From contig CAYJKV010000005.1 in the NCBI GenBank assembly GCA_964371255.1, positions 13,816 through 77,815 on the forward strand: DNA of 64,000 nt, in the 5' to 3' direction. The notes under the pieces were generated by a model that did not search any database, was not told the origin of the DNA, and saw nothing but the letters and a program-made list of their open reading frames with translations. Of the stretch, positions 3,474 to 54,987 are shown piece by piece. The stretch comes from an uncultured Candidatus Saccharibacteria bacterium. Lineage in GTDB: Bacteria; Patescibacteriota; Andersenbacteria; UBA10190. The translations under genes were made by a program, and so were the position numbers. Position 1 is the stretch's first letter. Each line of letters begins with the position of its first letter.

Positions 3474-3476
3474 CAA

Positions 3477-7826: not shown

Positions 7827-7942
7827 CAAAAGCGTCGATGTCAGACACCCCTAGTAGCTTACGAGCGAACGGGGTTTTCTTTACTCAAATTCCAAATAAA
7901 TAGGGTCAGGTAAATGGGTAAATGAAGTTCAGCCAACGTTTC

Positions 7943-8002
7943 TGCAATTTGCCGAACTTGCAGGCTTTGCCTGCAAACTGAGACCACTGTGTGGTGAAGG
8001 AG
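7943..8002. repeat. 60-bp direct repeat, copy 1 (59/60 identical to 9001-9060); contains an 8-bp-stem hairpin TTGCAGGC-ttt-GCCTGCAA and ends in GGTGAAGGAG
   Basis: Read directly from the sequence. A few partially similar bases also lie immediately upstream (cagccaac vs cagccacc). Confidence 0.9.
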
Positions 8003-8957: not shown

Positions 8958-9000
8958 GAAACGTGGGGTCAATGATGAATATGCGGGCAGCCACCACTTA

Positions 9001-9060
9001 TGCAATTTGCCGAATTTGCAGGCTTTGCCTGCAAACTGAGACCACTGTGTGGTGAAGGAG
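9001..9060. repeat. 60-bp direct repeat, copy 2
   Basis: tgcaatttgccgaatttgcaggctttgcctgcaaactgagaccactgtgtggtgaaggag, differing from copy 1 by a single base. Confidence 0.9.
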
Positions 9061-12241: not shown

Positions 12242-12254
12242 ATATAATGACGGT

Positions 12255-12638
12255 ATGGCACAAAATTTGACGGTTAAACAGCGCAGATTTGTTTCCGCCC
12301 TGGTAGAGCACGGTAATGCCACGCAAGCTGCTATTGATGCTGGCTACGAAGTACAAGACAGGATGTCAGCCAAAGTTATCGCCAGCCAGAACCTGGATAA
12401 GCCGAACATTCGCACAGCCCTTGATGCTGCCCTCTCACAGCGTGGCCTGGATGAGACTGCTATCGTTCAAGGACTTGCACGGCTTCTGGAATCCGAAAAC
12501 TTGGCTCACGTTGCCAGAGGCGTTGAGCTCCTATTAAAAATTAGAGGTGATGCCGCACCAAAACGAAGTATGCACGTACGTATGAGCTATGCCGAGCGAA
12601 TTAGGGAGGAATTAACCAGAAACGACCAACAAAACTGA
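12255..12638 (+). CDS. Phage terminase small-subunit-like protein (Terminase_2-type N-terminal HTH), orphan
   Basis: LTVKQRRFVSALVEHGNATQAAIDAGYEVQDRMSAKVIASQNL matches the conserved N-terminus of P27-family TerS (LT.KQ..F..Y...NATQAA..AGYS). No TerL, portal or capsid genes nearby. Confidence 0.7.
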   Translation: MAQNLTVKQRRFVSALVEHGNATQAAIDAGYEVQDRMSAKVIASQNLDKPNIRTALDAALSQRGLDETAIVQGLARLLESENLAHVARGVELLLKIRGDAAPKRSMHVRMSYAERIREELTRNDQQN

Positions 12639-12703: not shown

Positions 12704-13474
12704 CTACTCATTATTTTTTACCCAGAAAATCACTCGTTTCTCTAAAAGGACAACCACCCAGAAAAATAAAATTCCAGCCAGTGCCGCCGCAATGACTGCA
12801 CTAAACATTTTTACTATCTCCAAGTGATAGGAGTTAACTAGAATTAAATACCCAATGCCTCTATTTGCACCAACAAACTCACCAACAATTGCCCCAACGA
12901 CAGCGAGCGAGGTTGATATTTTAAGAGCCGAAAAGATATAGGGTAAGGCATTTGGTAATCGCAGCTTAGTAAAAATTTGCCATTTGGTTGCCGACAGGCT
13001 GCGTAGTAGGTCTAATGCTTCAGTATCCACCGCCTTAAGCCCCTTTGTTGTATTAACTATGGCAGGAAAGAAAGCGATTAGGGCTGCCGCAGCAACTTTG
13101 GATGATATACCGTTACCGAACCATAGCAGGAGTAATGGAGCCATTGCGATAATAGGAGTTGTTTTAAGGGCAATAGCATAGGGATATAACCCTTTTTCAA
13201 GCGTAGATGAGTGAGCAAAGACAATAGCGACAAGTACACCAATGGCGTTAGCAAGTGCAAAACCAAGAAAAGCCTCCCAAAGAGTAATACCTGTATGAAA
13301 AGCAAGGGTGTGAATGTTGACGATGAAATCTATAACAATTGCCGATGGCGCAGGAAGAAGATACTGTGGCACCTCAAGTGCACGAACAGTAAACTCCCAA
13401 GCAATGAGTATTGCCACGAAGGCAACAGCAGGAGCAAGGAAGTATGTTATTCGTGAAGTTGATTTCGTAGCCAT
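12704..13474 (-). CDS. ABC transporter permease, NitT/TauT family
   Basis: About 6 TM helices. Genomic context is an ATPase and NMT1-like binding proteins. Confidence 0.8.
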   Translation of the reverse strand: MATKSTSRITYFLAPAVAFVAILIAWEFTVRALEVPQYLLPAPSAIVIDFIVNIHTLAFHTGITLWEAFLGFALANAIGVLVAIVFAHSSTLEKGLYPYAIALKTTPIIAMAPLLLLWFGNGISSKVAAAALIAFFPAIVNTTKGLKAVDTEALDLLRSLSATKWQIFTKLRLPNALPYIFSALKISTSLAVVGAIVGEFVGANRGIGYLILVNSYHLEIVKMFSAVIAAALAGILFFWVVVLLEKRVIFWVKNNE

Positions 13475-14187
13475 TGGATTTGGTCTAAATATTCTTTACT
13501 GCTTTTTGTCTCAATTGCACGGGGACGAGGTAGCTGTATGTCTCTTACTGCCGCGATAGTCGCGGGTCGGTCTGATAAAACTATCACCTTATCTGATAGA
13601 AAAACTGATTCGGATAATGAGTGGGTAACAAAGAGAATAGTTTTCTTAGTCTTCTGCCAAATGTCTAGCAAGACCAAATTCATTCTTTCTCGCGTAAGTT
13701 CATCTAAAGCTCCAAACGGCTCATCCATTAACAGAATGTCGGGATTAAAAACTAGCGCACGAGCTAGGGATACTCGTTGCTTCATTCCACCAGACAACGC
13801 ATCAGGATAGTAGCCCGCAAACTCTTTCAGTCCAATTAGCTCAATGAGCTCTTGTGCTTCGGCAAGAGGAGAAGTATCCCCAATAATCTCTAACGGGAGT
13901 TCTACATTCTTTAATACCGTCCGCCAGGGAAATAAAACGGGGTTCTGGAACACAAAACCAAGTTCTCTTTTTTTAACTGCTACATCAAGCGAACTCTCTT
14001 TGATGCTTATGTGCCCGCGCAGTGGAGGAAGGAGACCCCCAACTATTTTAAGTAGTGTTGTTTTACCACAGCCAGAGGGGCCGACAATACTGACAAACTC
14101 CCCCTCCTGTATTTGGAAATTAATATCACGCAGGACGTGGAGAGAATCATAGGAATGATAAACATTCTGGGCTGCAATGAACGACAT
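13447..14187 (-). CDS. ABC transporter ATP-binding protein, NitT/TauT family
   Basis: Walker A GPSGCGKTT, signature LSGGMKQR, Walker B LLMDEPFGALD. Confidence 0.9.
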   Translation of the reverse strand: MSFIAAQNVYHSYDSLHVLRDINFQIQEGEFVSIVGPSGCGKTTLLKIVGGLLPPLRGHISIKESSLDVAVKKRELGFVFQNPVLFPWRTVLKNVELPLEIIGDTSPLAEAQELIELIGLKEFAGYYPDALSGGMKQRVSLARALVFNPDILLMDEPFGALDELTRERMNLVLLDIWQKTKKTILFVTHSLSESVFLSDKVIVLSDRPATIAAVRDIQLPRPRAIETKSSKEYLDQIQWLRNQLHE

Positions 14188-15197
14188 TATGGTAAAAACT
14201 CATTAGTGAATACCTGACGAGGGTCTAATTCTTGTTTAAGCAATTCCTGCTGCTTTAGAATCTCTGTTGTAGACTCCCACACTGAAGCCTCCATCAAACC
14301 AACCTTTGATTTTGCAGGCTGAACCAGAAGCTTGGTTGCAGAAAAGCTATCTTGCTCAAATTGCTCATTAAGTTGCGGGTCATATTTTCTTGCTAGTGCG
14401 TGTGCCTCTTGCTCATTATTAACTGCATATTCCCACCCACGAATAGTGGCATTGAGAAATTTTTGCACCGTTTCGGGATGTTCATTAATAAAGTCCTCAC
14501 GGGCAAAGATAACCTGGGCATACATAGGAATTCCATAGTCTTTCGGGAAAATGAGATTTGTCTCGAACCCCTGCGCCCTGGCAATGATGGGCTCAACATT
14601 GATGAAGCCTGGCCAGACATCAACTTCCCTTCTAAAGAAAAGGGTCATATCAAATTTTACAGGCACCTCCGTAACATCGCTGGACTTGATATTAAACTGG
14701 CTCAGGAGAGCTCGGTAAAGGATTTCTGTATCAAGGCCAGTCTTAACGCCAATTTTCTTTCCTCTAAAATCGCTAGGTGTGGTTATGCCAGAATCTTTGT
14801 GCGAGAAATAAACGATAGGATTTTCTTTGTAAATCGCTGCTATCGCTTTAATCGGGATGTCTTTATTTCTTGCCTGCAGAACTTCTACTGCCCCAGCCAT
14901 TCCGAAAGTATCAGAGCCGCTAGCAACCAGCAGGATAGAATTATGGTCTACACCTCCTGGGTGAATATCAACCTTTAGTCCTTCGTTTTCATACAATCCT
15001 CTTTCTTGCGCGGCATAATATCCCTCAAATCCTGCACCGTGCAGCCAAGCCAGCCTCAAAGAAATATTTTCTGCGTTATCGCTTTGTTCAGTCCGATTCC
15101 ACCAGAGAGTAGCAGTAATAAGAGCGACGAATACGATAAGAAGTATAGTTGCTTTTGAGCCAGTTATCTTAGGAAATAGTGGCATATTATTGCACAA
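14187..15197 (-). CDS. ABC substrate-binding protein, NMT1/THI5/SsuA-like (paralog 1)
   Basis: Signal anchor, then LRLAWLHGAGFEGYYAAQERGLYENEGLKVD...VASGSDTFG, typical of NMT1-like periplasmic binding proteins. Confidence 0.8.
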   Translation of the reverse strand: MCNNMPLFPKITGSKATILLIVFVALITATLWWNRTEQSDNAENISLRLAWLHGAGFEGYYAAQERGLYENEGLKVDIHPGGVDHNSILLVASGSDTFGMAGAVEVLQARNKDIPIKAIAAIYKENPIVYFSHKDSGITTPSDFRGKKIGVKTGLDTEILYRALLSQFNIKSSDVTEVPVKFDMTLFFRREVDVWPGFINVEPIIARAQGFETNLIFPKDYGIPMYAQVIFAREDFINEHPETVQKFLNATIRGWEYAVNNEQEAHALARKYDPQLNEQFEQDSFSATKLLVQPAKSKVGLMEASVWESTTEILKQQELLKQELDPRQVFTNEFLP

Positions 15198-16194
15198 ACT
15201 CTGTAGTAAAAGTCTTGTCTATTTCTACCGCATTTTTCATAAAGCCTTGCTCCAATAGTAATGTTTGTATTGACCGCCAAGTGGCATCATCCATAAAACC
15301 GACAGGGTTACTGTCTGGCTTCACCAGTGGAATACTTGCTTTCATCATTTTGGTTTCGTGTTCCTGATTAAGCTTGTCGCTAGACTGCAATGTATAAACC
15401 ACCGCCTGTTCAGGATTTTGCAAAGCAGCCTCCCACCCCTCAATAGTTGCTTGGACAACTCGCTGCACCACATCGGGCTTGTTCTTAATCATCTCCTCGG
15501 TAGTGAACAAAGTATCAGCATAGAGATTCACACCATAATCACTCGGCCAAATTAAATTGACCTGATGACCTTGTTCTTCAGCAGTAAGCGGTTCATTAAT
15601 GGCATAACCTGGCCAAACGTCTACCTGCCTGGTAAGGAGCGGCGTAATATCAAACTTTACAGGAACTTCCTGAAAGGACTTAGAATCAACACCCGCTTTC
15701 TTAAGTACAGCACGATACGTTAATTCCTCATTGCCGCCCAACTTCACACCCACCTTCTTGCCAACAAAATCTTTCGGCGAAGTAATATCAGAATCTTTTA
15801 GTGAAAATAGTACAAAGGGACTTTTTCGGTAAATAACCGCAAGTGCCACGACAGGAATTTCCTTTTCTCGCGCCAGCAAAATCTGGTCTGCCCCTGTTAC
15901 ACCAAATTGGTCTGACCCGCTAGCAACCATCTGAATTGCAGGAAAATCAACACCCCCTGGCTGAAGTGTGACGTTTAGATTTTTATCCTTGTAGAATCCT
16001 CCTTTATCGGCAAAGTAGAAACCTGCAAATTGAGCTTGGTTTAGCCACTTAAGACGAATAGAGACATTTTCTCCGTTTCCTGTCTCTAATAATGAATTAT
16101 TTTTACGAGCTGAAATTCCCCACCACAGAAGGGCACCTATTCCCATCACTATTATTGCGGCAATCAAAGTTTTCTTACTTGAGTTCATTATCAT
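15187..16194 (-). CDS. ABC substrate-binding protein, NMT1/THI5/SsuA-like (paralog 2)
   Basis: Paralogous to 14187-15197 (IRLKWLNQAQFAGFYFADKGGFYKDKNLNVTLQPGGVD..MVASGSDQFG). Confidence 0.8.
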   Translation of the reverse strand: MIMNSSKKTLIAAIIVMGIGALLWWGISARKNNSLLETGNGENVSIRLKWLNQAQFAGFYFADKGGFYKDKNLNVTLQPGGVDFPAIQMVASGSDQFGVTGADQILLAREKEIPVVALAVIYRKSPFVLFSLKDSDITSPKDFVGKKVGVKLGGNEELTYRAVLKKAGVDSKSFQEVPVKFDITPLLTRQVDVWPGYAINEPLTAEEQGHQVNLIWPSDYGVNLYADTLFTTEEMIKNKPDVVQRVVQATIEGWEAALQNPEQAVVYTLQSSDKLNQEHETKMMKASIPLVKPDSNPVGFMDDATWRSIQTLLLEQGFMKNAVEIDKTFTTEFVQ

Positions 16195-16265
16195 ATTTGC
16201 TATTTATAAAATGCAGTGGTTTCAGGAAAAAGTCCACTTTTCCTGTACCCTAAAGAGCAAATATT

Positions 16266-16484
16266 TTAATGCAGTCCTCGGAAGAGTTCTGCTAAAGAGA
16301 CTCCTAAAGCTCTAGCAATTTTCTCAATGTTAATGATGGATACGTTCTGCTCACCACGCTCAACAGAGCCAATGTAGGTGCGGTGTATTTTAGCTTTCAT
16401 CCCCAAGTCCTCTTGCGAGAAGCCACGCTGTAGCCGTAGCTGCCGCACTCGTTCCCCTAAGTAATAACGTATATCCCGTGCCAT
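16266..16484 (-). CDS. XRE-family helix-turn-helix transcriptional regulator (cI/Cro-like)
   Basis: LRLQRGFSQEDLGMKAKIHRTYIGSVERGEQNVSIINIEKIARALGVSLAEL is a classic HTH_3 sequence. Divergent from the downstream + strand gene block. Confidence 0.8.
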   Translation of the reverse strand: MARDIRYYLGERVRQLRLQRGFSQEDLGMKAKIHRTYIGSVERGEQNVSIINIEKIARALGVSLAELFRGLH

Positions 16485-16589
16485 ATCTGTATGGTCGGGC
16501 TGATGCAGTCAATGAATCTACAGACAATAACTAGCATTAGCATTGAGCTAGTGATACGGTAGTAATGATGACTATAACTAGCGTTCTTT

Positions 16590-16958
16590 ATGCCGCTTCG
16601 TAATATATTCATAACCCTGGCTATAATTGTTTTAGGCTGTTTGGTGCTGGGGTGGCTGTTTGGTTCAATCACAAGTGCTGCATATTCTTACAGAAAACGG
16701 ATAGACCCTGTTGGGCAATATTATCTGGATATTTTGTGGTGGAAACAGCAAGGGTGGGACTTGCTTAGATACGGCATAGGCGGATTCTTTATCTGTGTAC
16801 CGATGATTTTTGCTTTCTTTTTTCTGTTTGATAGTTTTAATGACTTGTTCAATCAAAATCCGCTTTCGCCAGTATTCCTCGGCAAGATGTTAATTCTATT
16901 TTTCGTGTCGGGTTTTTTGATGTATTCAGCCAACTCAATTCTTGAAAGCAGAGAATAA
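16590..16958 (+). CDS. Small membrane protein, hypothetical
   Basis: 122 aa with 3-4 hydrophobic helices. Confidence 0.45.
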   Translation: MPLRNIFITLAIIVLGCLVLGWLFGSITSAAYSYRKRIDPVGQYYLDILWWKQQGWDLLRYGIGGFFICVPMIFAFFFLFDSFNDLFNQNPLSPVFLGKMLILFFVSGFLMYSANSILESRE

Positions 16959-17342
16959 ATGACAAAAAAGCACGGTATCGTTCGCCTCGCCTTTCTTGAC
17001 GACGGCCTATCATCGCTGGCGTATGTCCTACACACGCTACAATCAGCCCAGCCTGTGTTGGAGAGTCAGGGAGTAATAATAGCCCTCACCATCCTGCCTA
17101 AGTCCTTACCCCAAACCAGGCACTACGTTGAAACAATGATACTGCGGCAGCAAGATATTCTCTTGTATAACCAGGAGCATCTAAAAAATGACACAGCCAC
17201 CTTATTTGGGGTTAAAGAAGTACAACCATACAGACTATGGCTACGGGAAGGTCAAGAGCACAATTCTGACGACTACGGCACGCTCCAAGAAGCCCTGCAA
17301 GCCGTGTTTGCTCACCTTAAAGTACAAACCCCAGCACTATGA
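16959..17342 (+). CDS. Hypothetical protein
   Basis: Starts at the stop of the previous ORF. No recognisable motif. Confidence 0.4.
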   Translation: MTKKHGIVRLAFLDDGLSSLAYVLHTLQSAQPVLESQGVIIALTILPKSLPQTRHYVETMILRQQDILLYNQEHLKNDTATLFGVKEVQPYRLWLREGQEHNSDDYGTLQEALQAVFAHLKVQTPAL

Positions 17343-17508
17343 TTACTCTCGAACAAGCCCGTAAATTTTATCCCAAAGACCAGTGTCCGCCTGACGACGT
17401 GATACTCCGCGTTCTCGCTTCATCTTACCGCCTCGCAGAAATGGAGTGGGACATTATGATGGACGAAAAAGCAGCAGAACGAAAAAAGAAAGATGGTAAG
17501 AAAAACCT

Positions 17509-17715
17509 ATGACTGTTGCCGAAGCACGCAAGTACCTTACTCCCGAAGATAACCAACGTCTGTCAGACGCAGAGGTGCAAAAACTCTTGGCCGAGGATTA
17601 TACTCTGGCAGATATAGCCATTGATGAAGTGCTGAACAATGGGCCGTTTTACAGGAAGTTGAAAAAGGAGAAAGATAAAAACAATGCCAAAGACTATCCG
17701 CATTCTGTTACTTGA
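17509..17715 (+). CDS. Hypothetical small protein
   Basis: 68 aa. Overlaps the next ORF. Confidence 0.3.
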   Translation: MTVAEARKYLTPEDNQRLSDAEVQKLLAEDYTLADIAIDEVLNNGPFYRKLKKEKDKNNAKDYPHSVT

Positions 17716-18097
17716 GGACGACCTGGCAACAGTTTCGGCTATCGCCCAAAAGCTGGCTGAGTTGGAACAGGATTTGCAGGAGCGCGGCACCGACATCGCC
17801 TTAACTGTACTATCTGAATACACGCAGGTGGAGCAATACATCAACACTGATAAAGTTCATCAATATGATATTGTCCTCCTTGACCGCGACTGCAAAGCTG
17901 GCGGGTCTTTCCACGCCCTGGATTTTGAGAGGATTGGCGTTGAGAAAATAATCTCCATTTCATCTACCCCGCAGTGGAACGAAGAAGCGCAAGCGCGAGG
18001 TATAACTAACGTTGTTTGGAAGGATTATAGCAACCTTGAAAACTTTGCAGCCGAACTATCGCACATTATCAGGAGCACCATAGCTGACTTGGCGTAA
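17684..18097 (+). CDS. Stand-alone CheY-like receiver-domain protein
   Basis: IRILLLEDD...DIVLLDRDC...IISISS resembles the acidic pocket, phospho-acceptor Asp and conserved Ser/Thr of REC domains. No output domain. Confidence 0.5.
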   Translation: MPKTIRILLLEDDLATVSAIAQKLAELEQDLQERGTDIALTVLSEYTQVEQYINTDKVHQYDIVLLDRDCKAGGSFHALDFERIGVEKIISISSTPQWNEEAQARGITNVVWKDYSNLENFAAELSHIIRSTIADLA

Positions 18098-18144
18098 CTG
18101 CTTTTCAGAGCCACACTAAAATTGGTTGCGTAAGGCGGCCACTA

Positions 18145-18909
18145 ATGAAAATGACGATGAAAGAACACGATAAAACTTTAGCTGACTATTATGCTGATGT
18201 AGTGCGGCGGATTAGCGAGCAGGCGGCGATTGAGGGGTATGGCAGTGAAATGATGGTTACTTTGCATCCGCCAAAACAAAAGACAGAAGCAGACATTATC
18301 TACAATTTGCATAATCGCGGAGCCCTGTGCATTACTGACAACAGCCAAGACACGATAACCCTGATAGCTTTACCTGAATTACAACGCTTACTTACTCCAA
18401 CGAACCGTGACATTAAATCCACCCGTGACCTCGCGACCATTGACTACGCTTTGCCACGGCCATCTGACGAGCGCAAGACATCGCCTGTTATGCAAAGCAG
18501 TGGCAACGCTTCAATTAAGTACCGAGACGAACCGCCCAAACCCAAACAAAAGCTGGGCTGGAAAGATACTTATTATCAACCAGGACACGCCGTATTTGAG
18601 CGCACTGCTGACAATAAAGGAGCCCTGAAAATTGTCGGCTACCAATCACTTTCATTTGAGAACATCCCCGCAGATATTGTTGAGTTTTTCTGTGCTCTAC
18701 CCCACCCCGACTCAAAGAAGCCGCGAACTTATGGTGACCTTCCAACAAGGATAAGGGACAAATGTAATAGTGAGCGGTATAGGAAAGCCATCGCAGAAAT
18801 TAACAAACGGTTCCGCAGGCATACGGAAGAAAAGTTTGGTGACCTAATCCATCGGGTAAAAAAAGAGCCTGGATACAACGAAGCCAACGAATACTATTGG
18901 GGATTATAG
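18145..18909 (+). CDS. Hypothetical protein (254 aa)
   Basis: No recognisable motif. Confidence 0.45.
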   Translation: MKMTMKEHDKTLADYYADVVRRISEQAAIEGYGSEMMVTLHPPKQKTEADIIYNLHNRGALCITDNSQDTITLIALPELQRLLTPTNRDIKSTRDLATIDYALPRPSDERKTSPVMQSSGNASIKYRDEPPKPKQKLGWKDTYYQPGHAVFERTADNKGALKIVGYQSLSFENIPADIVEFFCALPHPDSKKPRTYGDLPTRIRDKCNSERYRKAIAEINKRFRRHTEEKFGDLIHRVKKEPGYNEANEYYWGL

Positions 18910-19433
18910 TCCGTCGGGTGGTCGTCGGGTGTAGATAACTTTTGATTGAAAGGCTACATAAGCTTTCAATTTTTTGGCTAAAAATTACGTAAGCGTCCTG
19001 TTCCCGTCCGACGAGACGCGACCCTACCGTTGTAGGTAATGACACGAAGCATTACCTCAACTCAACACTGGACGACCAGCGACCTCGCAATGGCTGCTGC
19101 TATTTCGTTATGGGAACCAATTGAGGACATTGATACTTCGCGACCACGAGCAGTTTTCAAGTTTGCAAACTGTCAGCGAGTACAAGAACTGGCAGACAAA
19201 TACCACCGTGGAGTAATTCGCATCGAGCCACGCCAATTTTTTGACCAAATCCGCGCCGTCAAAGCGCGGATATACGCCTAATTTTATGCAGCCCACTGCC
19301 ACACAGGTTGCCCGTTACCAAGAACTGTACCGCCGCTACGGTATTGAAATTACCGAACAGCAAGCCCGCGAGGAAGGTGCAGCCCTAATGCAGCTTGTGT
19401 CGCGTATTTACCGACCCTTAACGCAAAAGGAAT

Positions 19434-19910
19434 ATGAACACTACCGACCAACCAAGCGATAATACAAAAAAAGAACCGCTCCCAACCACGGAAACGGTTT
19501 CTTCTATTTCCAGTGTACCGCAGGAGGACTACTACGCAAGCCGAGGTACTAAAGAGTGGCGTCAGGAACAAATTAGGAGCCTACGGGAGCGGCTGACTGA
19601 CCCGCGCTGGCACGTTCGTATGCCTGGAACGCTCTTTACGACCAAATGGCGAGAACTGTTAGGAAAAGGTACCTGTTATCAACTTTTAGCGGTGTTGATG
19701 CGAACGTGTAGCTGGGAACGCCGTGAGTGGCACGGGAACATCTTTCAGTTGGCAGCAGTTATGGGGTTATCCGAGCGGACGGTGCGCTATCAACTCAACA
19801 AACTAAAGCAGATTGATGGTTTCAAGGTACACCGTCACCCGTGGTCAATCACGATTTATATGCCTGACCGCATTTTTCCCAAAGATAAACGAGAGGGAAA
19901 GAAGGTATGA
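19434..19910 (+). CDS. Winged-helix DNA-binding protein (replication-initiator / DnaD-like?)
   Basis: The C-terminal region LAAVMGLSERTVRYQLNKLKQIDGF looks like a wHTH recognition helix. Confidence 0.4.
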   Translation: MNTTDQPSDNTKKEPLPTTETVSSISSVPQEDYYASRGTKEWRQEQIRSLRERLTDPRWHVRMPGTLFTTKWRELLGKGTCYQLLAVLMRTCSWERREWHGNIFQLAAVMGLSERTVRYQLNKLKQIDGFKVHRHPWSITIYMPDRIFPKDKREGKKV

Positions 19911-20190
19911 CCAGCTTACTAAAATGCGCGGCAATGGACTTCCAGCGTGCGGCAACCATACAAACACACATCGGCAATCGTCGTCCAGTGAACGGCAACA
20001 TAACGGATTTTGACAGCTTTTTTCCTTTTGGAAAAGTTACTCAATTTAGCCAGGAAATAAGGGTGAACGGCAATTTTTGTGCGCGCTGTACTAACTCCTT
20101 ATCGAATACGAATATCCAGCTCTTTTTAACAACTCATTCGAGAGGTGCGCAGATTTTTCTGAAGAAAAATCTGCTGCCCCAGGGGGCTTT

Positions 20191-20469
20191 ATGGAAAAAA
20201 TGACGGATAATCGTCCCAATCGCAATCGCATCCCCGTAAGCAAGTTTCAACCTCGCACACGGGAGGAACGGGTGATATACGAAATCGCGCAAGCGTTGAA
20301 CGAACCGTACATTGATTTTATTAAAAGTATCAAAGACCGCTTTGGTTTCGACCTCATTTGGGATGCGTGGCAGGAATACAAGGAAGTAATGAAGCGGGGC
20401 GCGCCTATTGAGCACCCGCGCGGTTTCTTTAACTACCTTATCAAAATCAGGCGGCCTGATAGGAAGTGA
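20191..20469 (+). CDS. Hypothetical protein
   Basis: 92-aa basic protein. Confidence 0.35.
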   Translation: MEKMTDNRPNRNRIPVSKFQPRTREERVIYEIAQALNEPYIDFIKSIKDRFGFDLIWDAWQEYKEVMKRGAPIEHPRGFFNYLIKIRRPDRK

Positions 20470-20777
20470 CTTGCCATTACTTAACCCTATGACGGCAGAA
20501 AAACTATCGAATCTATATAAACAGAGGAGGTGATGCGTACACGCAGTAAGCTCTTAAAAGAATTGAGAACGGCAATTTACTGCCGAACTGGACTTAGCAC
20601 CAAATGCAATGATATTATTAAAGCGTTGTCCCAGAGTCCGTTGTCATATCCGAAGTTTTTTTATTGGCCTTCCTGTCGCCAAAAGGGCGGTTCTGCCAGG
20701 AAGCCAACTCTTCGGAGAAAGCGGACTGGGACAACCAGAACCGTCCTTTTAGTTTGTAATGACTTGAAATAACTACT

Positions 20778-22388
20778 ATGGAAAATAAAAAAATGCGGTA
20801 CGTTATGTACCTTCGTAAAAGTACTGATGAGGATAATCGCCAGGTGCAGTCAATTGACGACCAGAAAAAAGAACTCGACCGCGTGGTGGAGCAGCACGGC
20901 TTAAATATTGTGGAGATTATCAGTGAGTCGCGGTCAGCCAAAAAACTTGGGCGGTCAGGCTTCAATAAAATGATTGAAATGATTGTAAGTGGCAGTGCCG
21001 ATGCAATTTTATGCTGGGAGGCAACCCGCCTCGCGCGTAATCCCGTTGATGGTGGAAAAATCCAGTGGCTTATGCTGGAAGGGAAAATTAAAGTGGTGCA
21101 CACCCCGCAACGAAAATACCTCTGTACTGACAATGTCATTATGATGGCTGTGGAGTTTGGTATGTCCACCCAGTTCAGTGTTGACCTGGCAAAAAATGTG
21201 AAGCGCGGAATGTTAAGCAAAGCAGAAAAAGGCTGGCGGCCAGGACAGGCTCCACTTGGCTATCTGAACGATAAGGTAGAAGAAAAAGGCAATAAGCGTA
21301 TCTACACGGATAATGAAAAGTTCCCTATTGTTCGTAAGCTATGGGACTTATTGCTATCAGGCAATTACACCGTCCCTGCGCTCGTCACTATTGCTAACGA
21401 GCAGCTTGGCCTGCGTACCAAGCGAGGCAAGAAAATCAGCCTGGGCAGCCTGTATCACCTGTTCAATGATAAGTTCTACTACGGTGAATACACTTTTGAC
21501 GGTGAAGTCTACCAGGGCAAGCACAAGCCAATGATTTCTGCCGAGGAGTTTGACCGCACCCAAAAGATTTTAGGCCGTGCGGGACGGCCGCGACCAAAGT
21601 ACAAGCGGCTACCATTTAATGGGTTAATCCAATGCGCTGCCTGCGGTCGCACTATCACCTGCGATGAGCGGGTCAAGGTCATTAAGCGTACAGGCGAAAC
21701 CAAAAGTTTTATGTACCATCGCTGCACGCATAAAACTAGGAACCACTACTGCCCGCAGCCGCCCGTGACATTTGGCAACTTGGTCGAGCAGGTGCAGCAG
21801 TACCTGGGTAACATCACTATCCCGCCAGAGTTCTTAGAGTGGGCCGTACAGTCACTACGCGAGCAGCAGAAGCTGGAAGAAACGAACCGCAACCAAATCC
21901 TCGCCAACCTACGGAACAACCACCAGAACGTGATTGACCGCATTGATAGTCTGGTCAACAACTATATCGCGCCAGAAAATGCCAAGCGCGAACTAATTAG
22001 CGACGATGATATGAAGCGGCAAAAGGCTGCGCTCCTGCAAGAGAAGTCAGTGATTGAGCGGGAGTTGAGTAACACAAGTCTGCGCGTTAATGAGTGGGTG
22101 GACTTAACCATCAAAACTTTTCACTTCGCCACCTACGCCAAAGCCTGGTTTGATAAAGGCGACTACGAAACCAAGACTGCTATTCTCCGCGCGCTTGGCG
22201 TGACATTCACACTCAAAGACCGTAGCCTCCTGTTGGACTTGAAAGGGCCGTACGTCGTCATTAAAAAAGGTGTTGCAGCAGGATTGTTTGAGAACCCCGT
22301 ACTCGGACTGGTCAGGAAGGCTCTGCAAGAGCCTGCGCTGGCTCAACAGCCTGAAATTGCATCCGTATTATCCAGTTGGAGCGGGTAA
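20778..22388 (+). CDS. Large serine recombinase (resolvase catalytic domain + recombinase domain + Zn ribbon)
   Basis: N-terminal YVMYLRKSTDEDNRQ..SIDDQ is the catalytic-Ser motif region. Mid-section matches the recombinase domain. C-terminal CAACGR..C...YHRCTHK..HYC is a Zn ribbon. The stop codon lies inside the tRNA-Gly 3' end. Confidence 0.9.
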   Translation: MENKKMRYVMYLRKSTDEDNRQVQSIDDQKKELDRVVEQHGLNIVEIISESRSAKKLGRSGFNKMIEMIVSGSADAILCWEATRLARNPVDGGKIQWLMLEGKIKVVHTPQRKYLCTDNVIMMAVEFGMSTQFSVDLAKNVKRGMLSKAEKGWRPGQAPLGYLNDKVEEKGNKRIYTDNEKFPIVRKLWDLLLSGNYTVPALVTIANEQLGLRTKRGKKISLGSLYHLFNDKFYYGEYTFDGEVYQGKHKPMISAEEFDRTQKILGRAGRPRPKYKRLPFNGLIQCAACGRTITCDERVKVIKRTGETKSFMYHRCTHKTRNHYCPQPPVTFGNLVEQVQQYLGNITIPPEFLEWAVQSLREQQKLEETNRNQILANLRNNHQNVIDRIDSLVNNYIAPENAKRELISDDDMKRQKAALLQEKSVIERELSNTSLRVNEWVDLTIKTFHFATYAKAWFDKGDYETKTAILRALGVTFTLKDRSLLLDLKGPYVVIKKGVAAGLFENPVLGLVRKALQEPALAQQPEIASVLSSWSG

Positions 22389-22451
22389 CGGGAGTCGAAC
22401 CCGTATCTCTACCTTGGCAAGGTAGTGTAAAAGCCATTATACGATACCCGC
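22377..22451 (-). tRNA. tRNA-Gly (anticodon GCC), CCA encoded
   Basis: Reverse-complement folds as acceptor GCGGGTA/TACCCGC, anticodon stem CTACC/GGTAG with loop TTGCCAA, T-arm ACGGG-TTCGACT-CCCGT, discriminator T, then CCA. Confidence 0.85.
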
Positions 22452-22520: not shown

Positions 22521-22560
22521 TGTTTTTCATTTTTCGCTTTACGCTTTTCGTTTCTCTTGT
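22521..22560. repeat. Conserved T-rich tRNA-trailer motif, copy A (gtttttcatttttcgctttacgcttttcg)
   Basis: About 25/29 identical to the motif at 63731-63779, and similar to the one at 58616-58668. Confidence 0.7.
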
Positions 22561-22631
22561 GCCGCGGGTCAGAGTTGAACTGACTACGCCGACCTCTTCA
22601 GGGTCGCGCTCTACCGATGAGCTACCGCGGC
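22560..22631 (-). tRNA. tRNA-Phe (anticodon GAA)
   Basis: Reverse-complement GCCGCGGTAGCTCATCGGTAGAGCGCGACCCTGAAGAGGTCGGCGTAGTCAGTTCAACTCTGACCCGCGGCA. Anticodon loop is CTGAAGA. Confidence 0.8.
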
Positions 22632-22860: not shown

Positions 22861-23865
22861 GTGGGACGACCAGTAACTTTGTTCACAGGACAATGGGCAG
22901 ATCTGAAACTTGAGGAGCTAGCCGCCAAAGCAGCCAATTTCGGCTACGATGGGCTGGAACTCGCTTGTTGGGGAGACCATTTCGAAGTAGATCGAGCCAT
23001 CAATGAAGATGGCTACTGTGCCAAGCAACGCGCGATACTGGAGCGTTATGGATTGAAGTGTTACGCCATCAGCGCTCACCTGGTTGGTCAAGCCGTGTGT
23101 GACCTCATCGACGAACGTCATAAAAGCATCCTGCCTGAAGATGTATGGGGAGATGGTGATCCCGCGGGTGTGCGTTGGCGAGCTGCGGAGAAGATGAAGC
23201 AAACAGCCATAGCGGCCAAGAGATTCGGTGTCGAAGTAGTTAACGGCTTCGTGGGCAGCTCAATTTGGCACTTACTTTATTCTTTCCCACCAGCCTCGAG
23301 AGAAACGATCGCCGCCGGCTTCACCGATTTCAAAGAAAGGTGGACTCCAATTCTCGATCACTTTCGGGCAGTAGGCGTTAAGTTTGCTCTGGAGGTTCAC
23401 CCCACCGAAATCGCCTTTGATATTGCCTCAGCCAGTCGAGCCTTACAAGCTGTTGACTGGCACCGATCTTTCGGATTCAATTATGACCCGTCTCATCTCG
23501 CCTATCAAGGAGTAGACTACGTCAGATTCATCCGTGAGTTTGGGCAACGTGTCTTCCATGTACACATGAAGGACGTCTGGTGGAACCACGGTGACGGCAG
23601 CGTAGGAGTGTTTGGCGGACACACAGCCTTCGGTGATCCACGACGTTATTGGGACTTCCGCTCGCTTGGGCATGGCGATGTTAATTTCGAAGAGATCATC
23701 GTAGCGCTCAATGATGCTGGTTACCAAGGACCGCTTTCGGTGGAATGGGAAGACATGCGCATGGATCGTGAGCACGGGGCAGCAGAAGCCTGCCAGTTTG
23801 TGAGACGAGCAGACTTCAAACCATCAAACGTCGCTTTTGACGCCGCCTTCGATAAGGAATCATGA
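22861..23865 (+). CDS. Sugar phosphate isomerase/epimerase (xylose-isomerase-like TIM barrel family)
   Basis: GTG start. [17 protein letters not shown]...H.KD..W is characteristic of the AP-endonuclease-2/XylA-like TIM barrel. GC-rich. A TTGACA(17)TAATTT-like promoter lies upstream. Confidence 0.75.
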
Positions 23866-24036: not shown

Positions 24037-24137
24037 CCTTACACAGCGTCCTCGCCTAACACGGCATATCCAATATTTACTACCTAAAAGCTTTAGCCAG
24101 AACAACTAAAGACTATATCCACTGTTAATATCATTAG

Positions 24138-24222
24138 TGCGGACGGTGGGATTTGAACCCACAACCTCGTAATGAGGCACAGCCCCTCAAGCTGCTGCGT
24201 AAACCAATTCCGCCACGTCCGC
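24138..24222 (-). tRNA. tRNA-Leu (anticodon GAG), long variable arm
   Basis: Reverse-complement GCGGACGTGGCGGAATTGGTTTACGCAGCAGCTTGAGGGGCTGTGCCTCATTACGAGGTTGTGGGTTCAAATCCCACCGTCCGCA. Anticodon loop is TTGAGGG. Confidence 0.8.
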
Positions 24223-24256: not shown

Positions 24257-24967
24257 TCAAGCGATTCGCAATATCGACCCGCCCTTTTTGTAGCCTTTGG
24301 GTTGCTGTCCTTTCTGGGCGAGGTAATTAGCTGCCCATTGGCGATCAAGTTTTGCTTTTTTGCGCTGAAGACATGCGATGCAATCAGAGTAATACATTGC
24401 CTGGTAAATCTTCAGTGAGTTTTGTTTTGCATATTTCAAACAATATACCTTGGAGCCACGACGAACATGTCCAGATATTCCAGCTAATTTATTGACTGTT
24501 TGGTCAAGCCATACTAAATGTTTTTTACTAGCACAGGCAAAGCTAATGTAAAGCGAAACACTACTGTGCCATCGAGTATCCCAGTAGGCATGTGATGATC
24601 CATCGCCATCAAATTCTCCGCGTAAATAATCAAAAAAATATTGGTCTGGGATTTGTACTTTACCAATAGTGTGAGTTTTACGAGGAGTAATGCCTATAGA
24701 AACAAACCACTCGTAAAGGGTTACGTCACCAAATTGCACTTGTGAGCAACGATTTCCGTCACCCGAGGGCTTGCTGCTTATCTTAACATTTAAACTTAAG
24801 CATTTTTTAAATGTTTCTAATAATTGAGTATCCTTAGAAGTTAGGCTCAAGTGTCTACCGTCAGAATATAGGCATCCGTCAGTAGCCATAAGACCACAAG
24901 CGTAAGCTAACTCTGGTGTCCATTCTGGAATTCGTAGGCGCCTTGGTTTTGAACCTCTTTTCCCCAT
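24257..24967 (-). CDS. Free-standing double-motif LAGLIDADG homing endonuclease
   Basis: Motif 1 LAYACGLMATDGCL. Motif 2 YLRGEFDGDGSS, about 100 aa later. 236 aa with a basic C-terminus. Confidence 0.8.
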   Translation of the reverse strand: MGKRGSKPRRLRIPEWTPELAYACGLMATDGCLYSDGRHLSLTSKDTQLLETFKKCLSLNVKISSKPSGDGNRCSQVQFGDVTLYEWFVSIGITPRKTHTIGKVQIPDQYFFDYLRGEFDGDGSSHAYWDTRWHSSVSLYISFACASKKHLVWLDQTVNKLAGISGHVRRGSKVYCLKYAKQNSLKIYQAMYYSDCIACLQRKKAKLDRQWAANYLAQKGQQPKGYKKGGSILRIA

Positions 24968-25764: not shown

Positions 25765-26005
25765 TCCAAATTCCAAAGCTCAAATGCCAAATTAATATCA
25801 AATGACTAAACGACAAAATCTCAGACATTAGTCATTTGGATTTTGATTAATCATCGAAATTTGGCCTCTAAGAGGTCCCATAAGGATCATTGATCATTAT
25901 AAACCTTGTTTGAAATTTGGTCTTTGTAAATTGAAAAGTGTTGCTCCTTGTTTGAAATTTGGTCATTCGGATTTGATTGGGATTTGGGATTTGGACATTG
26001 GGATT
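25765..26005. repeat. Array of CCAAAT (x4, 25765-25792) and inverted ATTTGG-type (x7 or more, 25855-26005) hexamer motifs, with an 11-bp perfect inverted repeat caaatgactaa/ttagtcatttg (25799-25809 / 25828-25838) and a 19-bp direct repeat cttgtttgaaatttggtc (x2)
   Basis: Read directly from the sequence. Intergenic between the nfo stop and the UDG start, and extending into the nfo 3' end. Confidence 0.8.
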
Positions 26006-26871
26006 TTTTTCACTGTTCTCCATTCCTTTAGCCTCTCCAAATCCTGTCCAATCAGTTCGTCCTGTTTCGTCTCCAGCACAAAATTGACCTGTTGAAAATA
26101 TGGATGGGCTAATATGGCCTTAAATCCATCCTCTCCAATCTTGCCTAGTCCGATATGTTCATGGCGGTCCTTTTGTTCACCTAAGCCAGCCTTTGAATCA
26201 TTGATATGCACCAGTTTCAACCGCTCAATGCCTAAAGATTGCTTAAATTGAACCATTGTTTCATCTAGCGCCGCTCTTGTTCTTATATCATAACCGCTGG
26301 CAAACATATGACACGTATCTAAACAAACCTGCATGTCTTTCTTACCTAAACCTTTGATAATATACGCTAGCTCTTCGAATGAATTGCCAATCAACGCTCC
26401 AGCACCCGCGGAAATCTCCAACAACAAGCGCGCGGTAAACTTTGGGTTGCCGTGTAGCACCGCCCGCAGTCCCTTGATCGTTCGTTTTAATGCCCCACCG
26501 GGTGTTTTACCCTTTTCCACACCTGGCCAATCCCTGGCGCTGCCCAAATGCGTTACCACGTATTTTACTCCCAATAAACTAGCTCTCTCCATCTCCTCTC
26601 GTACCACCCTGACAGTATTCTCCGCCAACTCCTTCTTGGGAGCAGCAAAGTTAATGTAGTAAGGCGTATGCATATAACTTTCCATCTCATACTGCTGGCA
26701 GCGTTGCCTGAATAGCAATGCATCATCTTCGCTTATTTGGGGAGCTACTCCACCGCGCGGACTGCGCGAAAAAAACTGGAAACACTCCGCGCCGACCTCT
26801 TTCGCTCGGTCCGGTGCCTTGGCCACTCCCCCGGCCGCCGATACATGTAATCCTACTTGCTGGTATTTCAT
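25963..26871 (-). CDS. nfo: Endonuclease IV (AP endonuclease family 2)
   Basis: YMHTPYYINFA...HLGSA...CLDTCHMFASGYD are the conserved Nfo metal-binding blocks. The C-terminal tail of about 20 aa is encoded by the repeat array. Confidence 0.9.
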   Translation of the reverse strand: MKYQQVGLHVSAAGGVAKAPDRAKEVGAECFQFFSRSPRGGVAPQISEDDALLFRQRCQQYEMESYMHTPYYINFAAPKKELAENTVRVVREEMERASLLGVKYVVTHLGSARDWPGVEKGKTPGGALKRTIKGLRAVLHGNPKFTARLLLEISAGAGALIGNSFEELAYIIKGLGKKDMQVCLDTCHMFASGYDIRTRAALDETMVQFKQSLGIERLKLVHINDSKAGLGEQKDRHEHIGLGKIGEDGFKAILAHPYFQQVNFVLETKQDELIGQDLERLKEWRTVKKIPMSKSQIPIKSE

Positions 26872-54563: not shown

Positions 54564-54595
54564 CATTAAGCATCCTCACTAAAACTTTTAAGACC

Positions 54596-54985: not shown

Positions 54986-54987
54986 TT

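Follow-up and report, generated by a model that had tools for sequence, protein, structure and literature searches.

A probable small integrated element in a Candidatus Andersenbacteria bacterium, with a large serine recombinase gene that ends inside a tRNA-Gly gene

Why a recombinase gene should end inside a tRNA gene, and whether the DNA beside it is a mobile element, are the questions raised by a compact gene block in the genome of a Candidatus Andersenbacteria bacterium. Within the window (the whole stretch of 64,000 nt that was analysed), a 536-residue open reading frame on the + strand (20778–22388; gene callers also propose a start at 20805) runs into tRNA-Gly(GCC), which ARAGORN calls at 22377–22451 on the − strand. 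The Rfam tRNA body, without CCA, occupies 22380–22451 (61.7 bits), and the overlap of the two genes measures 12 nt with the encoded CCA and 9 nt without it. The 12-nt overlap reported in the initial annotation is thus borne out by both ARAGORN and the ORF coordinates, as is the presence directly beyond it of tRNA-Phe(gaa), called by ARAGORN at 22559–22631 (−). The final four codons of the reading frame, TGG AGC GGG TAA (22377–22388), specify W-S-G-stop; read in antisense, they are also the CCA, discriminator, and acceptor end of the tRNA.

The product of this gene is predicted from its domain set to be a large serine recombinase (LSR): it comprises a catalytic resolvase domain (PF00239, E = 1.4e-17), a recombinase domain (PF07508, E = 2.7e-9), and a four-cysteine zinc ribbon (Zn_ribbon_recom, PF13408, E = 1.1e-4) whose 22.9 bits fall slightly below the cut-off of 25.3. 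Pfam therefore agrees with the domains first assigned to it, albeit with the zinc ribbon just under threshold. The initial annotation had also considered that the catalytic domain might be degraded; the ORF is intact, and across 39 homologues there is no variation in the catalytic-type residues R13, S15, R84, and R87 or in C286, C289, C316, and C325. Relatives in the PDB are the A118 integrase, SPbeta SprA/YokA, and TnpX (E about 1e-8 to 3e-4), and the C-terminal region, consisting of the recombinase and zinc-ribbon domains, aligns to the C-terminal domain of A118 Int and to SprA. The combination of resolvase, recombinase, and zinc-ribbon domains is shared with the LSRs A118/LI Int, SPbeta SprA, TnpX, phiC31, and Bxb1.

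A scan of GTDB recovered 400 relatives of the LSR, and at 65 of the 72 loci that could be evaluated the stop codon of the LSR falls within a tRNA gene in antisense orientation (Gly at 26 loci, His at 19, Asn at 13, and six others); at a further three the ORF reads through the entire tRNA, and at one it abuts the tRNA. The gene/tRNA overlap recurs with nine tRNA species in dozens of hosts, which excludes chance. The C-terminal residues W/L/M-S-G are conserved across the 39 homologues, and longer ORFs continue to read the tRNA in antisense (for example, WSGQGESNP). Targeted tRNAs across the family encode CCA more often than their neighbours (40/65 versus 32/108; Fisher p = 6e-5). Of the eight tRNA genes in the window, tRNA-Gly alone does so (0/7 others), which fits donation of the CCA by the element, and its 3′ CCA and discriminator (22377–22380) thus appear to be of element origin. 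In a host whose GC content is 62%, tRNA-Gly(UCC) adjoins an LSR 84% identical in amino acid and 81% in nucleotide sequence to that of the window; among GTDB representatives, no LSR exceeds 52% identity, IMG/VR relatives reach 35% at most, and those of GenBank phages and PLSDB plasmids reach 22%–25% at most. The LSR element family is large, almost confined to Patescibacteria (CPR), and apparently undescribed. Its cargo includes restriction-modification and ArsP modules.

The related loci also indicate where the strands are exchanged. The attL and attR of locus L066 and the P-core-P′ junction of L052 have just TGGGGT in common, the last 6 nt of tRNA-His; L012 and L017 carry 17-nt repeats beginning at the discriminator; the sites of L201 and L202 share GC alone; and in element pairs that are 88%–92% identical, similarity ends 6–7 nt into the tRNA. 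These attL, attR, and attP-like junctions point to a crossover in the last 2–6 nt of the tRNA, in which case the LSR ORF spans attP. A P′ motif, GTT(A/C)G(A/C)AC, is present in the DNA that encodes the C-terminal tail of the free-form LSR; five of the six P′ arms read have it at a distance of 15 nt from the core and L010 at 12 nt, while the T-loop motif GTCGAACC of the tRNA arm is 11 nt away from the core. The P′ motif is thus set about 4 nt further out than the tRNA motif, resembling the offset known between attP and attB half-sites of serine integrases. Dyad symmetry in the attP sites so delimited is weak. In serine integrases that have been studied, a palindromic GC core would not set polarity. 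Tandem junctions occur in L052, and L201 contains cassette-like modules flanked by GC+P′ repeats.

Free forms of the family are represented by complete circles. Each of four sequencing runs yielded a contig of 6,960 nt whose ends overlap by 30 nt (L171–L174), and the four are exact circular permutations of one another with 0 mismatches, giving a circle of 6,930 bp; an 8,612-nt contig with a 101-nt terminal overlap (L202) corresponds to a second circle of about 8.5 kb. Among the best 120 protein matches, five are attP-form LSRs, whose sequence diverges straight after W-S or M-S. Because attP lies inside the recombinase ORF, the C terminus differs between the free and integrated states: the free-form LSR carries a different conserved tail of 11–27 aa, encoded beyond the core, with the motif hydrophobic-V-x-x-V-R-T. 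Between L052 and L066, all five differences in the tail are synonymous in the LSR frame and similarity ends at the stop codon of that frame, which argues that the tail is under protein-level selection. For the element in the window, all 17 contigs with an identical LSR show the integrated context, and neither an empty site nor an excised form was seen among them. Over 13,131 nt, a close variant (L200) matches the window at 99.97% identity, covering most of the block to 19723 and stopping short of the LSR end and tRNA junction. No attP-form relative was found for the subclade to which this LSR belongs (P0001–P0005), and no syntenic relatives were found for the protein on the right flank of the block; the nearest relatives of the host have a GyrA 94% identical in amino acid sequence and about 70%–76% nucleotide identity.

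By analogy with the att sites of L066/L052, L012/L017, and L201/L202, the attR of the window would occupy 22355–22410. Its P arm would be the 3′ coding end of the LSR up to 22380, the crossover would fall at the GC of 22381–22382 (tRNA positions 72–71), and the B′ arm would be formed by the acceptor and T arm of the tRNA, with GTCGAACC 11 nt past the core; similarity to an 81%-identical element (L169) stops about 11 nt into the tRNA. The initial annotation had suggested a search for att cores on both sides of the block, and the right-hand site can be read by this analogy, but the left-hand one was not found. The most likely, though unproven, position of attL is 16195–16265, where the candidate core AGAGC (16246–16250) adjoins a hairpin with a 9-bp stem (16224–16246); this interval matches neither attR nor the P′ arms of relatives significantly. 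TTGAGC at 16543–16548 is a further candidate. The 22 kb upstream contain no P′ motif, tail ORF, or recognisable attL, and the repeat search of the same interval agrees with the earlier observation that a direct repeat of the tRNA 3′ end is absent. With a common core of just 2–6 nt at the tRNA end, as in most relatives and presumably in the window, the far end of an element is left without a displaced tRNA fragment. A left boundary near 16.2 kb, though unproven, is plausible.

The leftmost gene of the element is probably 16266–16484 (−), which encodes an XRE/Cro-C1-type HTH protein (HTH_3, E = 9.4e-17) and is divergent from the + strand operon, in keeping with its earlier description as a cI-like repressor. 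In the related elements L005, L026, and L068, an XRE homologue is encoded on the minus strand at the left side; L166 also has one, and in the free circle L171 minus-strand genes come directly after attP. Four small overlapping or abutting ORFs (122, 127, 57, and 68 aa; 16590–17715, +), called as genes on all contigs and without a family match in Pfam or PHROGs, form one + strand operon with 17684–18097, which encodes a 137-aa protein. This protein has no Pfam match; its AlphaFold2 model (pLDDT 68) adopts a (beta-alpha)5 fold, and the top Foldseek matches of the model in the PDB are all response-regulator receiver domains, so that fold and Foldseek together uphold the stand-alone receiver domain first proposed. 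Homologues with 50%–54% identity occur in L024 and L054. The next gene encodes a 254-aa cargo protein (18145–18909, +) with no Pfam or PHROG match and a single weak match, in L028.

It is followed by a pair of small + strand genes, one DUF5659-like (19039–19281) and the other encoding 73 aa (19241–19462); DUF5659 scores E = 1.6e-3 in the window and E = 3e-6 in L171. On sequence evidence, this pair is the signature cargo module of the LSR element family, since tblastn places the two genes side by side, upstream of the recombinase gene, in more than 20 related loci as well as in the 6.9-kb circle L171. For the 158-aa product of 19434–19910 (+), the earlier assignment as a winged-helix protein stands in part, with a weak Pfam HTH signal (HTH_30 and HTH_29, E about 0.005); a 30% homologue is present in the same gene order in L168. 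A small cargo ORF of 89–92 aa (20200–20469, +), without a Pfam or PHROG match, has a 48% identical homologue at the equivalent position beside the LSR of L168. All frames of the cargo operon are open, its genes are tightly packed, and its synteny is common to the window, L168, L171, and more than 20 loci. The XRE, receiver-fold, and HTH proteins and the DUF5659 pair would be cargo or regulatory genes. Neither a directionality factor nor a replication gene was recognised in the block, its small ORFs included; recombination directionality factors are not known to share a sequence signature.

Extending from about 16.2 kb to 22,382, the block is thus best read, with good confidence, as an integrated small element of about 6 kb, plasmid- or satellite-like, of an LSR family found almost only in Patescibacteria. 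The initial annotation had proposed an integrative element with its LSR at a tRNA gene and no need of a long repeat, and more than 60 related loci, the free circles, and the shared cargo point the same way. Counting against the reading are the failure to find attL in the 22 kb upstream, the integrated context of all 17 contigs, the palindromic GC core and weak dyad symmetry noted above, and the lack of a recognised directionality factor or replication gene in the block. By analogy with these relatives, the LSR/tRNA-Gly overlap would be the attachment site itself. The LSR would recombine an attP in its own last codons with an attB at the extreme 3′ end of a tRNA, as relatives show and as is presumed for the window, where attB would be the 3′ end of tRNA-Gly(GCC); inserting at the final tRNA bases, such an enzyme has a gene that crosses the attachment site. 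Strand exchange would take place in the last 2–6 nt of the tRNA, with GC (positions 72–71), just inside the discriminator, as the core in the Gly clade. Following integration, the tRNA body would be host DNA and the discriminator and encoded CCA would be element DNA, with the tRNA antisense completing the LSR ORF as ...W-S-G-stop; in the free circle, the ORF would instead read into the P′ arm and gain the conserved 11–27-aa tail.

Other histories of the block differ in how well they fare. It may have arrived in the same manner and since become a grounded fossil, its attL lost or eroded and excision impossible, with the LSR a remnant or acting in trans. That P′ arm, tail ORF, and core repeat are unrecognisable upstream, and that the 17 contigs and the variant strain hold integrated copies alone, would suit this account; on the other hand, the LSR retains an intact ORF with its catalytic-type residues preserved, the cargo operon is wholly open and tightly packed, and the missing P′ arm lacks a reference in the form of an attP-form relative from P0001–P0005, all of which leave it possible but doubtful. 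It is rather unlikely that the element is a larger composite island extending left to take in the NMT1-type ABC transporter operon (12704–16194), the small-terminase-like (Terminase_2) ORF (12255–12638), and perhaps more, as cargo or as what is left of earlier tandem insertions at this tRNA. NMT1/ABC operons do occur immediately to the left of the L166 element and upstream in L044, and tandem junctions (L052), GC+P′-flanked cassettes (L201), restriction-modification and ArsP modules among family cargo, and the lone Terminase_2 ORF itself are all in accord with such growth. Yet the ABC proteins of the window and L166 are just 28%–45% identical and differ in gene order, the search farther left turned up neither an LSR remnant nor an att-like repeat, and the left-hand genes recur in none of the other 80 loci, generic ABC matches apart.

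A cryptic prophage with a lysogeny switch is brought to mind by the divergent XRE repressor-like gene, the integrase at a tRNA gene, and the small-terminase-like ORF, which lies outside the block, 3.6 kb to its left. Pfam and PHROGs detect no gene for capsid, portal, large terminase, tail, or lysis in the block itself (16266–22388), the complete circle L171 has no virion, packaging, or lysis genes, complete free relatives measure just 6.9 and 8.5 kb, and LSR identities to IMG/VR (≤35%) and GenBank phages (≤25%) are low. The phage-like island of the initial annotation is accordingly not sustained, and a prophage origin is highly improbable; packaging of the element as a satellite is possible. 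The chance that the recombinase is host-domesticated, or its overlap with the tRNA fortuitous, and the locus non-mobile is close to nil: fixation of the element in the sampled population would agree with it, but the family data contradict it, given an overlap repeated with nine tRNA species in dozens of hosts, the existence of free circles, and a near relative in a host of different GC content.

Set beside known systems, the preferred reading, that of a small integrated element, combines familiar features in a different arrangement. Like other serine integrases, the family appears to have short att sites that share little more than a small core, without a long repeat, and its P′ motif is set farther out than the corresponding B′ motif; it differs in targeting the extreme 3′ end of a tRNA, in having attP inside the recombinase ORF, and, in the Gly clade, in what appears to be a palindromic GC core. 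Islander-type islands and prophages (PMC4383910) likewise leave the tRNA functional and have an integrase gene adjoining it, and the displaced tRNA 3′ fragment that marks them is also kept, as 17 nt at attL, in L012 and L017; they use a tyrosine integrase, however. An island of this type was rejected for the window, where the enzyme is a serine recombinase and a tRNA-fragment repeat is absent within 22 kb.

The SSV-type 'suicidal' integrases of archaea (PMC8371274) resemble the family in having the recombination site within their own coding sequence, so that integration alters the gene product. They are tyrosine recombinases whose gene is split and inactivated, whereas in the family only the 11–27-aa tail is exchanged and the catalytic and DNA-binding domains are left intact. 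Enzymes of this type with attP in int are found exclusively in archaea according to the same review (PMC8371274). A self-splitting integrase was rejected here, as the enzyme is a serine recombinase and the exchange is limited to the codons after W-S. In the integration-dependent immunity of mycobacteriophages (PMC3694055), the attP core likewise falls close to where an ORF ends, integration is again into a tRNA gene, and the viral and prophage proteins differ at the C terminus; there, a tyrosine integrase acts and the repressor gene is affected, with removal of a degradation tag, whereas in the family it is the serine recombinase itself that is changed. Prochlorococcus tycheposons (10.1101/2020.12.28.424599) are similarly small tRNA-associated elements with modular cargo, a minority of them with large serine recombinases (910 of 937 use tyrosine recombinases). 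They belong to a different host phylum, and the text consulted makes no mention of an attachment site within the recombinase gene.

A bolder and more tentative proposal concerns the family as a whole. In these mini-elements of 3.5–10 kb, an LSR that straddles attP could exchange a selected tail for tRNA-antisense residues and thereby 'know' whether it is free or integrated, while rewriting the tRNA 3′ end with CCA, hopping between tRNA species and hosts, and stacking cargo cassettes at a single tRNA. As the recognised half-site would be the conserved acceptor and T arm, one enzyme clade could move among tRNA species and hosts in this way. If this is true, the C terminus of the LSR would report the free or integrated state of the element, and could serve as a directionality or stability switch, possibly substituting for a separate directionality factor.

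The claim of the initial annotation that the recombinase gene ends inside the 3′ end of tRNA-Gly is borne out by ARAGORN and Rfam tRNA calls and by the position of the stop codon. ARAGORN places tRNA-Gly(GCC) at 22377–22451 (−) and tRNA-Phe(GAA) at 22559–22631 (−), and Rfam scores the tRNA-Gly body without its CCA (22380–22451) at 61.7 bits. The open reading frame (ORF) of the large serine recombinase (LSR; 20778–22388, +; 536 aa) finishes with TGG AGC GGG TAA at 22377–22388, which is the reverse complement of ...TTACCCGC-T-CCA, the 3′ strand of the tRNA-Gly acceptor stem followed by the discriminator and CCA; on the LSR side, the window sequence runs up to 22,381 as ...CCAGTTGGAGC. Among the eight tRNA genes of the window, only tRNA-Gly encodes its CCA, and this fits a P arm (the 3′ coding end of the LSR gene before the crossover core) that ends in ...TGGA and donates CCA and discriminator.

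The proposed catalytic serine, recombinase, and zinc ribbon domains are all recovered by Pfam as Resolvase (E=1.4e-17), Recombinase (E=2.7e-9), and Zn_ribbon_recom (E=1.1e-4, slightly under its cut-off), a domain set that makes the enzyme a large serine recombinase. The closest solved structures are those of the A118 integrase, SPbeta SprA/YokA, and TnpX. Residues R13, S15, R84, and R87 and four cysteines are invariant across 39 aligned homologues; the catalytic domain is hence not degraded, a state that had been named as evidence against an integrative element.

Homologues of the LSR number in the hundreds at 46%–84% identity, many of them named Moranbacteria, Parcubacteria, or Patescibacteria. 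A C-terminal W/L/M-S-G is conserved, with S535 invariant in the same alignment of 39, and a few longer homologues run on into a backwards reading of tRNA-Gly ('WSGQGESNPHHQLGKL' or similar). A GTDB scan with one genome per species returned 400 relatives, of which 80 loci were kept for evaluation, and each ORF was extended to its stop codon before ARAGORN was run. The stop codon lay within an antisense tRNA gene at 65 of the 80 loci; three ORFs read through the whole tRNA, one stopped 4 nt short of it, three ended without a tRNA, and eight could not be evaluated because the contig ended before any stop, or less than 60 nt past it with no callable tRNA. The 65 overlapped genes comprise tRNA-Gly (26), His (19), Asn (13), and Gln (2), with one each of Thr, Lys, Tyr, Asp, and Ala. 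Relatives more than about 43% identical to the window LSR sit almost exclusively at tRNA-Gly, with one at tRNA-Thr, and the clade at around 40% identity sits mostly at tRNA-His, tRNA-Asn, and others, with a few at tRNA-Gly. CCA is encoded by 40/65 targeted tRNAs versus 32/108 other tRNAs of the same loci (Fisher p=6e-5). Across these gene sequences, the LSR–tRNA overlap is a mark of the family and not a product of chance.

The closest non-self LSR (84% amino acid and 81% nucleotide identity) is located at tRNA-Gly(UCC) in a different host; its gene has 51% GC within surrounding DNA of 62% GC, and similarity to the window stops about 11 nt into the tRNA. In loci of the Gly clade (e.g., L005, L009, L015, L016, and L017), the last LSR codons contain, 8–30 nt upstream of the tRNA 3′ end, a conserved inverted repeat (AACAG-N(8-10)-CTGTT) with T-rich sequence after it. 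Absent from the subclade of the window, this repeat may act as a terminator or belong to the P half-site.

Free forms of related elements reveal what the LSR gene looks like outside a tRNA. Five of the best 120 protein matches have no tRNA-antisense end and diverge right after W-S or M-S into tails of their own (CIVRQVSTYFQNNTDYIYIPDFS, SLVMDVRTVVAQLV, WMIDVARTLYK, SLVNTVRTGFMGKSFV, and PCIRAHAPILSKIRDFG), and the LSRs of two further loci, L052 and L010, likewise diverge into tails. Contigs encoding one of these five proteins (P0038) were recovered from four sequencing runs; each measures 6,960 nt, and its ends overlap by 30 nt. The four are circularly permuted versions of the same sequence without a single mismatch and thus represent a 6,930-bp circle (L171). 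A second LSR in this form, P0107, lies on an 8,612-nt contig (L202) whose 101-nt terminal overlap indicates a circle of about 8.5 kb. The latter carries a DNA methylase, an NgoPII-like restriction enzyme, and an ImmA-like peptidase, and so the family moves defence cargo. Given these tailed LSRs and free circles, the LSR gene reads across attP, the site of the free element. In the free form, the tail is encoded by the P′ arm (element DNA past the core), and integration swaps it for tRNA-antisense codons up to the first stop. The replacement end amounts to G-stop in the window and elsewhere to at most about 25 residues where the stop lies inside the tRNA, with more in the three read-through loci.

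On a further contig, L201, a module at 2213–3709 comprising an ArsP permease, a thioredoxin, and an ArsR-type HTH protein is bracketed by two direct repeats of about 100 nt (2112–2204 and 3920–4017). In their right halves, these repeats consist of 'GC' and then the P′ arm belonging to the LSR attP on the same contig, as though cassettes had accreted at att-like sites.

The position of the crossover can be narrowed by comparing junctions. In the His clade, the left junction (attL) of the L066 element reads ...gttcgatttttat TGGGGT cacatcgtcgagg... and its right junction (attR, at tRNA-His) ...ctattctcga TGGGGT ggctagtgggg..., while at L052, where the LSR is followed directly by the left end of another element, the sequence is ...tatttctcga TGGGGT cacatcgtagagg.... 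All three share nothing but TGGGGT, which comprises CCA, discriminator, and two acceptor bases. The L066 element spans only about 3.5 kb, and its left arm is a terminator-like hairpin, as expected downstream of a tRNA gene. Elements that are 88%–92% identical in different hosts (L073/L080, L041/L043/L058, and L046/L052) lose similarity 6–7 nt into the tRNA. Within the Gly clade, L012 and L017 possess a 17-nt direct repeat (AGC GGG TA...) beginning exactly at the discriminator, 8.5 and 9.3 kb upstream, and only 'GC' is common to attR, the attP-form junctions of L202 and L201, and the two attL-like sites of L201. Since His-clade junctions, close-element pairs, and Gly-clade sites agree, we infer that exchange takes place at tRNA positions 72–71, or within a base or two, which in the window would be GC at 22381–22382. 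This putative Gly-clade core is palindromic; a dyad-symmetry search for the central dinucleotide was outscored by hairpins internal to the P arm. On the 759-kb chromosomal contig of L052, a second element takes the place of the tRNA, its P′ arm and cargo adjoining the LSR directly (11564–11640). By implication, elements can stand in tandem, and an attR-like site can act as a target.

Comparison of L052 with the L066 attL shows five differences in a conserved block of 75 nt, all of them synonymous in the LSR frame. Similarity stops at the stop codon of that frame, and all other frames contain stops or replacements; by this substitution pattern, the LSR tail is under selection. Tails across clades have in common the motif hydrophobic-V-x-x-V-(R/S)-T. 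Six P′ arms were read at the DNA level: five (L052, L171, L175, L201, and L202) have GTT(A/C)G(A/C)AC 15 nt past the core, and the sixth (L010) has a related motif, GTTATTGGAAC, 12 nt past it; the tRNA arm carries the T-loop sequence GTCGAACC 11 nt past the core. At serine-integrase sites, as reported in work on the A118/LI integrase, attP-type half-sites are shifted outward by around 4–5 bp relative to attB-type half-sites (those of the empty target). Because the offset between the P′ and tRNA motifs resembles this shift, the tail may reflect DNA constraint and protein constraint both.

Genes of the block in the window (about 16.2–22.4 kb) recur in relatives. The XRE gene at 16266–16484 (−), taken initially for a repressor, does encode a clear HTH_3 protein according to Pfam. 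The 'receiver domain' at 17684–18097 has no Pfam match, but its structural model adopts a (beta-alpha)5 fold whose best PDB matches are all response-regulator receivers; for the 'winged-helix' protein at 19434–19910, Pfam gives only weak HTH matches. Homologues of the 19434 gene and of the 20200 gene keep their order with the LSR in L168, whose LSR is 80% identical, and more than 20 loci have the gene pair 19039 and 19241 upstream of their LSR. A DUF5659-like gene and a small partner gene are common to the window and the 6,930-bp circle, and homologues of the receiver-fold protein occur also in L024 and L054. The XRE genes of L005, L026, and L068 lie on the minus strand at the left side of the element; in the 6,930-bp circle, attP is followed at once by minus-strand genes and then by a plus-strand operon, and the window is arranged alike. 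PHROGs and Pfam searches of the cargo ORFs of the window and its relatives gave almost no matches, the exceptions being DUF5659 and, in L068, an 815-aa protein with a Toprim domain. The phage-like character suggested earlier found no support, with no phage structural gene detected in the block by Pfam or PHROGs. Relatives of the LSR in IMG/VR reach at most 35% identity, and matches in GenBank phages and PLSDB plasmids reach about 25% at most.

The left end of the element is best placed just past the XRE stop codon, in the 71-nt gap at 16195–16265, as a candidate that draws on the encoded CCA, the nearest relative, the shared cargo order, and the layout of the 6,930-bp circle taken together. 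Within this gap, AGAGC at 16246–16250 adjoins a hairpin and is a candidate core of the putative attL. As the initial annotation had stated, there is no direct repeat of the tRNA 3′ end: searches of the window for direct or inverted repeats of that end or of the P arm returned nothing significant, including in the 22 kb upstream. An alternative attL at 16543 was rejected as no better than background, with 100/232 control windows scoring at least equally.

Across the window, GTT(A/C)G(A/C)AC and the tail peptide motif gave no credible match, and no remnant of a second LSR was found. No attP-form relative of the window subclade (P0001–P0005) was present among the best 120 protein matches. The attL of the window element may have eroded, in keeping with the 22 kb upstream yielding no repeat, dyad partner, P′ motif, or tail ORF. 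Alternatively, older insertions may lie left of the block, where an ABC transporter operon of two NMT1-type binding proteins, an ATPase, and a permease occupies 12704–16194 (−). In L166, too, an NMT1/ABC operon immediately borders the element on its left, and L044 has one upstream; tandem or cassette-like arrangements are present in L052 and L201.

The host is a patescibacterium (CPR), as its GyrA shares 94% identity with proteins named Candidatus Andersenbacteria; trigger factor, RNase Y, H+-pyrophosphatase, and P-type ATPase are further housekeeping genes elsewhere in the window. The identical LSR occurs on 17 contigs from several samples, with the same context in all, and every 90% cluster of flanking or element proteins holds only the window's own population. 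A variant contig (L200; 99.97% identical) also carries the element, and the Andersenbacteria genomes with GyrA at 94% conserve local synteny with only 70%–76% nucleotide identity across gyrA and its 10-kb flank. A metagenome scan for an empty site, using the AP-endonuclease-like gene of the right flank, gave 80 loci at 66%–76% identity without synteny. This AP_endonuc_2/sugar-phosphate isomerase gene (22861–23865, +) has its best non-self matches, at 75%–77%, in proteins named Planctomycetota or Sedimentisphaerales; the region is probably horizontally acquired DNA beside the tRNA cluster, which suggests that the cluster is a hotspot.

Several other features of the window were recorded. A 73-nt direct repeat (93% identical; 7930–8002 and 8988–9060) brackets an ORF for a 185-aa membrane protein (8400–8957) within the largely non-coding 7.6–9.4 kb and bears no relation to the LSR att sites. 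Adjacent to the ABC operon on its left, a lone small-terminase-like ORF (12255–12638, +; Terminase_2 E=1.5e-14) overlaps the start of a 760–792-aa ORF (9944–12322, −) without a Pfam match, and the former could be a remnant of another mobile element. Directly upstream of tRNA-Leu(GAG) (24137–24222, −) lies a LAGLIDADG-type ORF (24257–24967, −), for which the patescibacterial locus L073 has a homologue at 40% identity. Group I introns are reported in patescibacterial tRNA genes (PMC13011429), and Rfam detected none in the window at gathering score. Three tandem-like copies of a 31-nt unit (CCTTGTTTGAAATTTGGTC...) at 25904–26001 overlap the start of an ORF at 25963–26871. Three Andersenbacteria relatives (L195–L197) have a row of T4SS_pilin-family genes downstream of gyrA (15250–17770), to which the window ORFs at 53931–55812 align with about 67%–69% nucleotide identity (the equivalent of ~53.9–55.8 kb of the window).

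Taken as an integrative element with an LSR at a tRNA, the original interpretation stands by virtue of the family loci, the junctions, and the free circles of relatives: the stretch shared by recombinase and tRNA serves as the attachment site for mini-elements of a widespread Patescibacteria family, whose serine integrase gene straddles attP. tRNA genes are classic targets of tyrosine integrases, and serine integrases are major genome-engineering tools. The window element works like other tRNA-targeting integrative elements but, unlike those with tyrosine integrases, has a serine enzyme and a core of 2–6 nt at the very end of the tRNA. In actinophage R4, attP is said to lie perhaps in the sre gene. 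Placement of the att site inside the recombinase gene, as in the LSR family, is otherwise known only from archaeal SSV-type tyrosine integrases; their gene is split by integration, and these enzymes have been stated to be exclusive to archaea (PMC8371274). An analogous layout is found in mycobacteriophage integration-dependent immunity, in which att lies near the 3′ end of the repressor ORF and integration alters the C terminus, albeit of the repressor (PMC3694055). A few tycheposons are LSR-bearing tRNA elements (10.1101/2020.12.28.424599). A full-text search of a limited collection found no account of an LSR clade targeting tRNA 3′ termini or of its architecture, an absence that is no proof.

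A serine-recombinase gene carrying its att site would, in bacteria, be a new regulatory layout. To our knowledge, little is known about the mobile DNA of reduced-genome Patescibacteria, and the LSR family documents small circular and integrative elements in this group with restriction-modification, transporter, and regulatory cargo. Such elements can be found by two simple markers, the conserved W-S-G end and the encoded CCA, which also help to avoid misannotation of the tRNA or of the recombinase stop codon.
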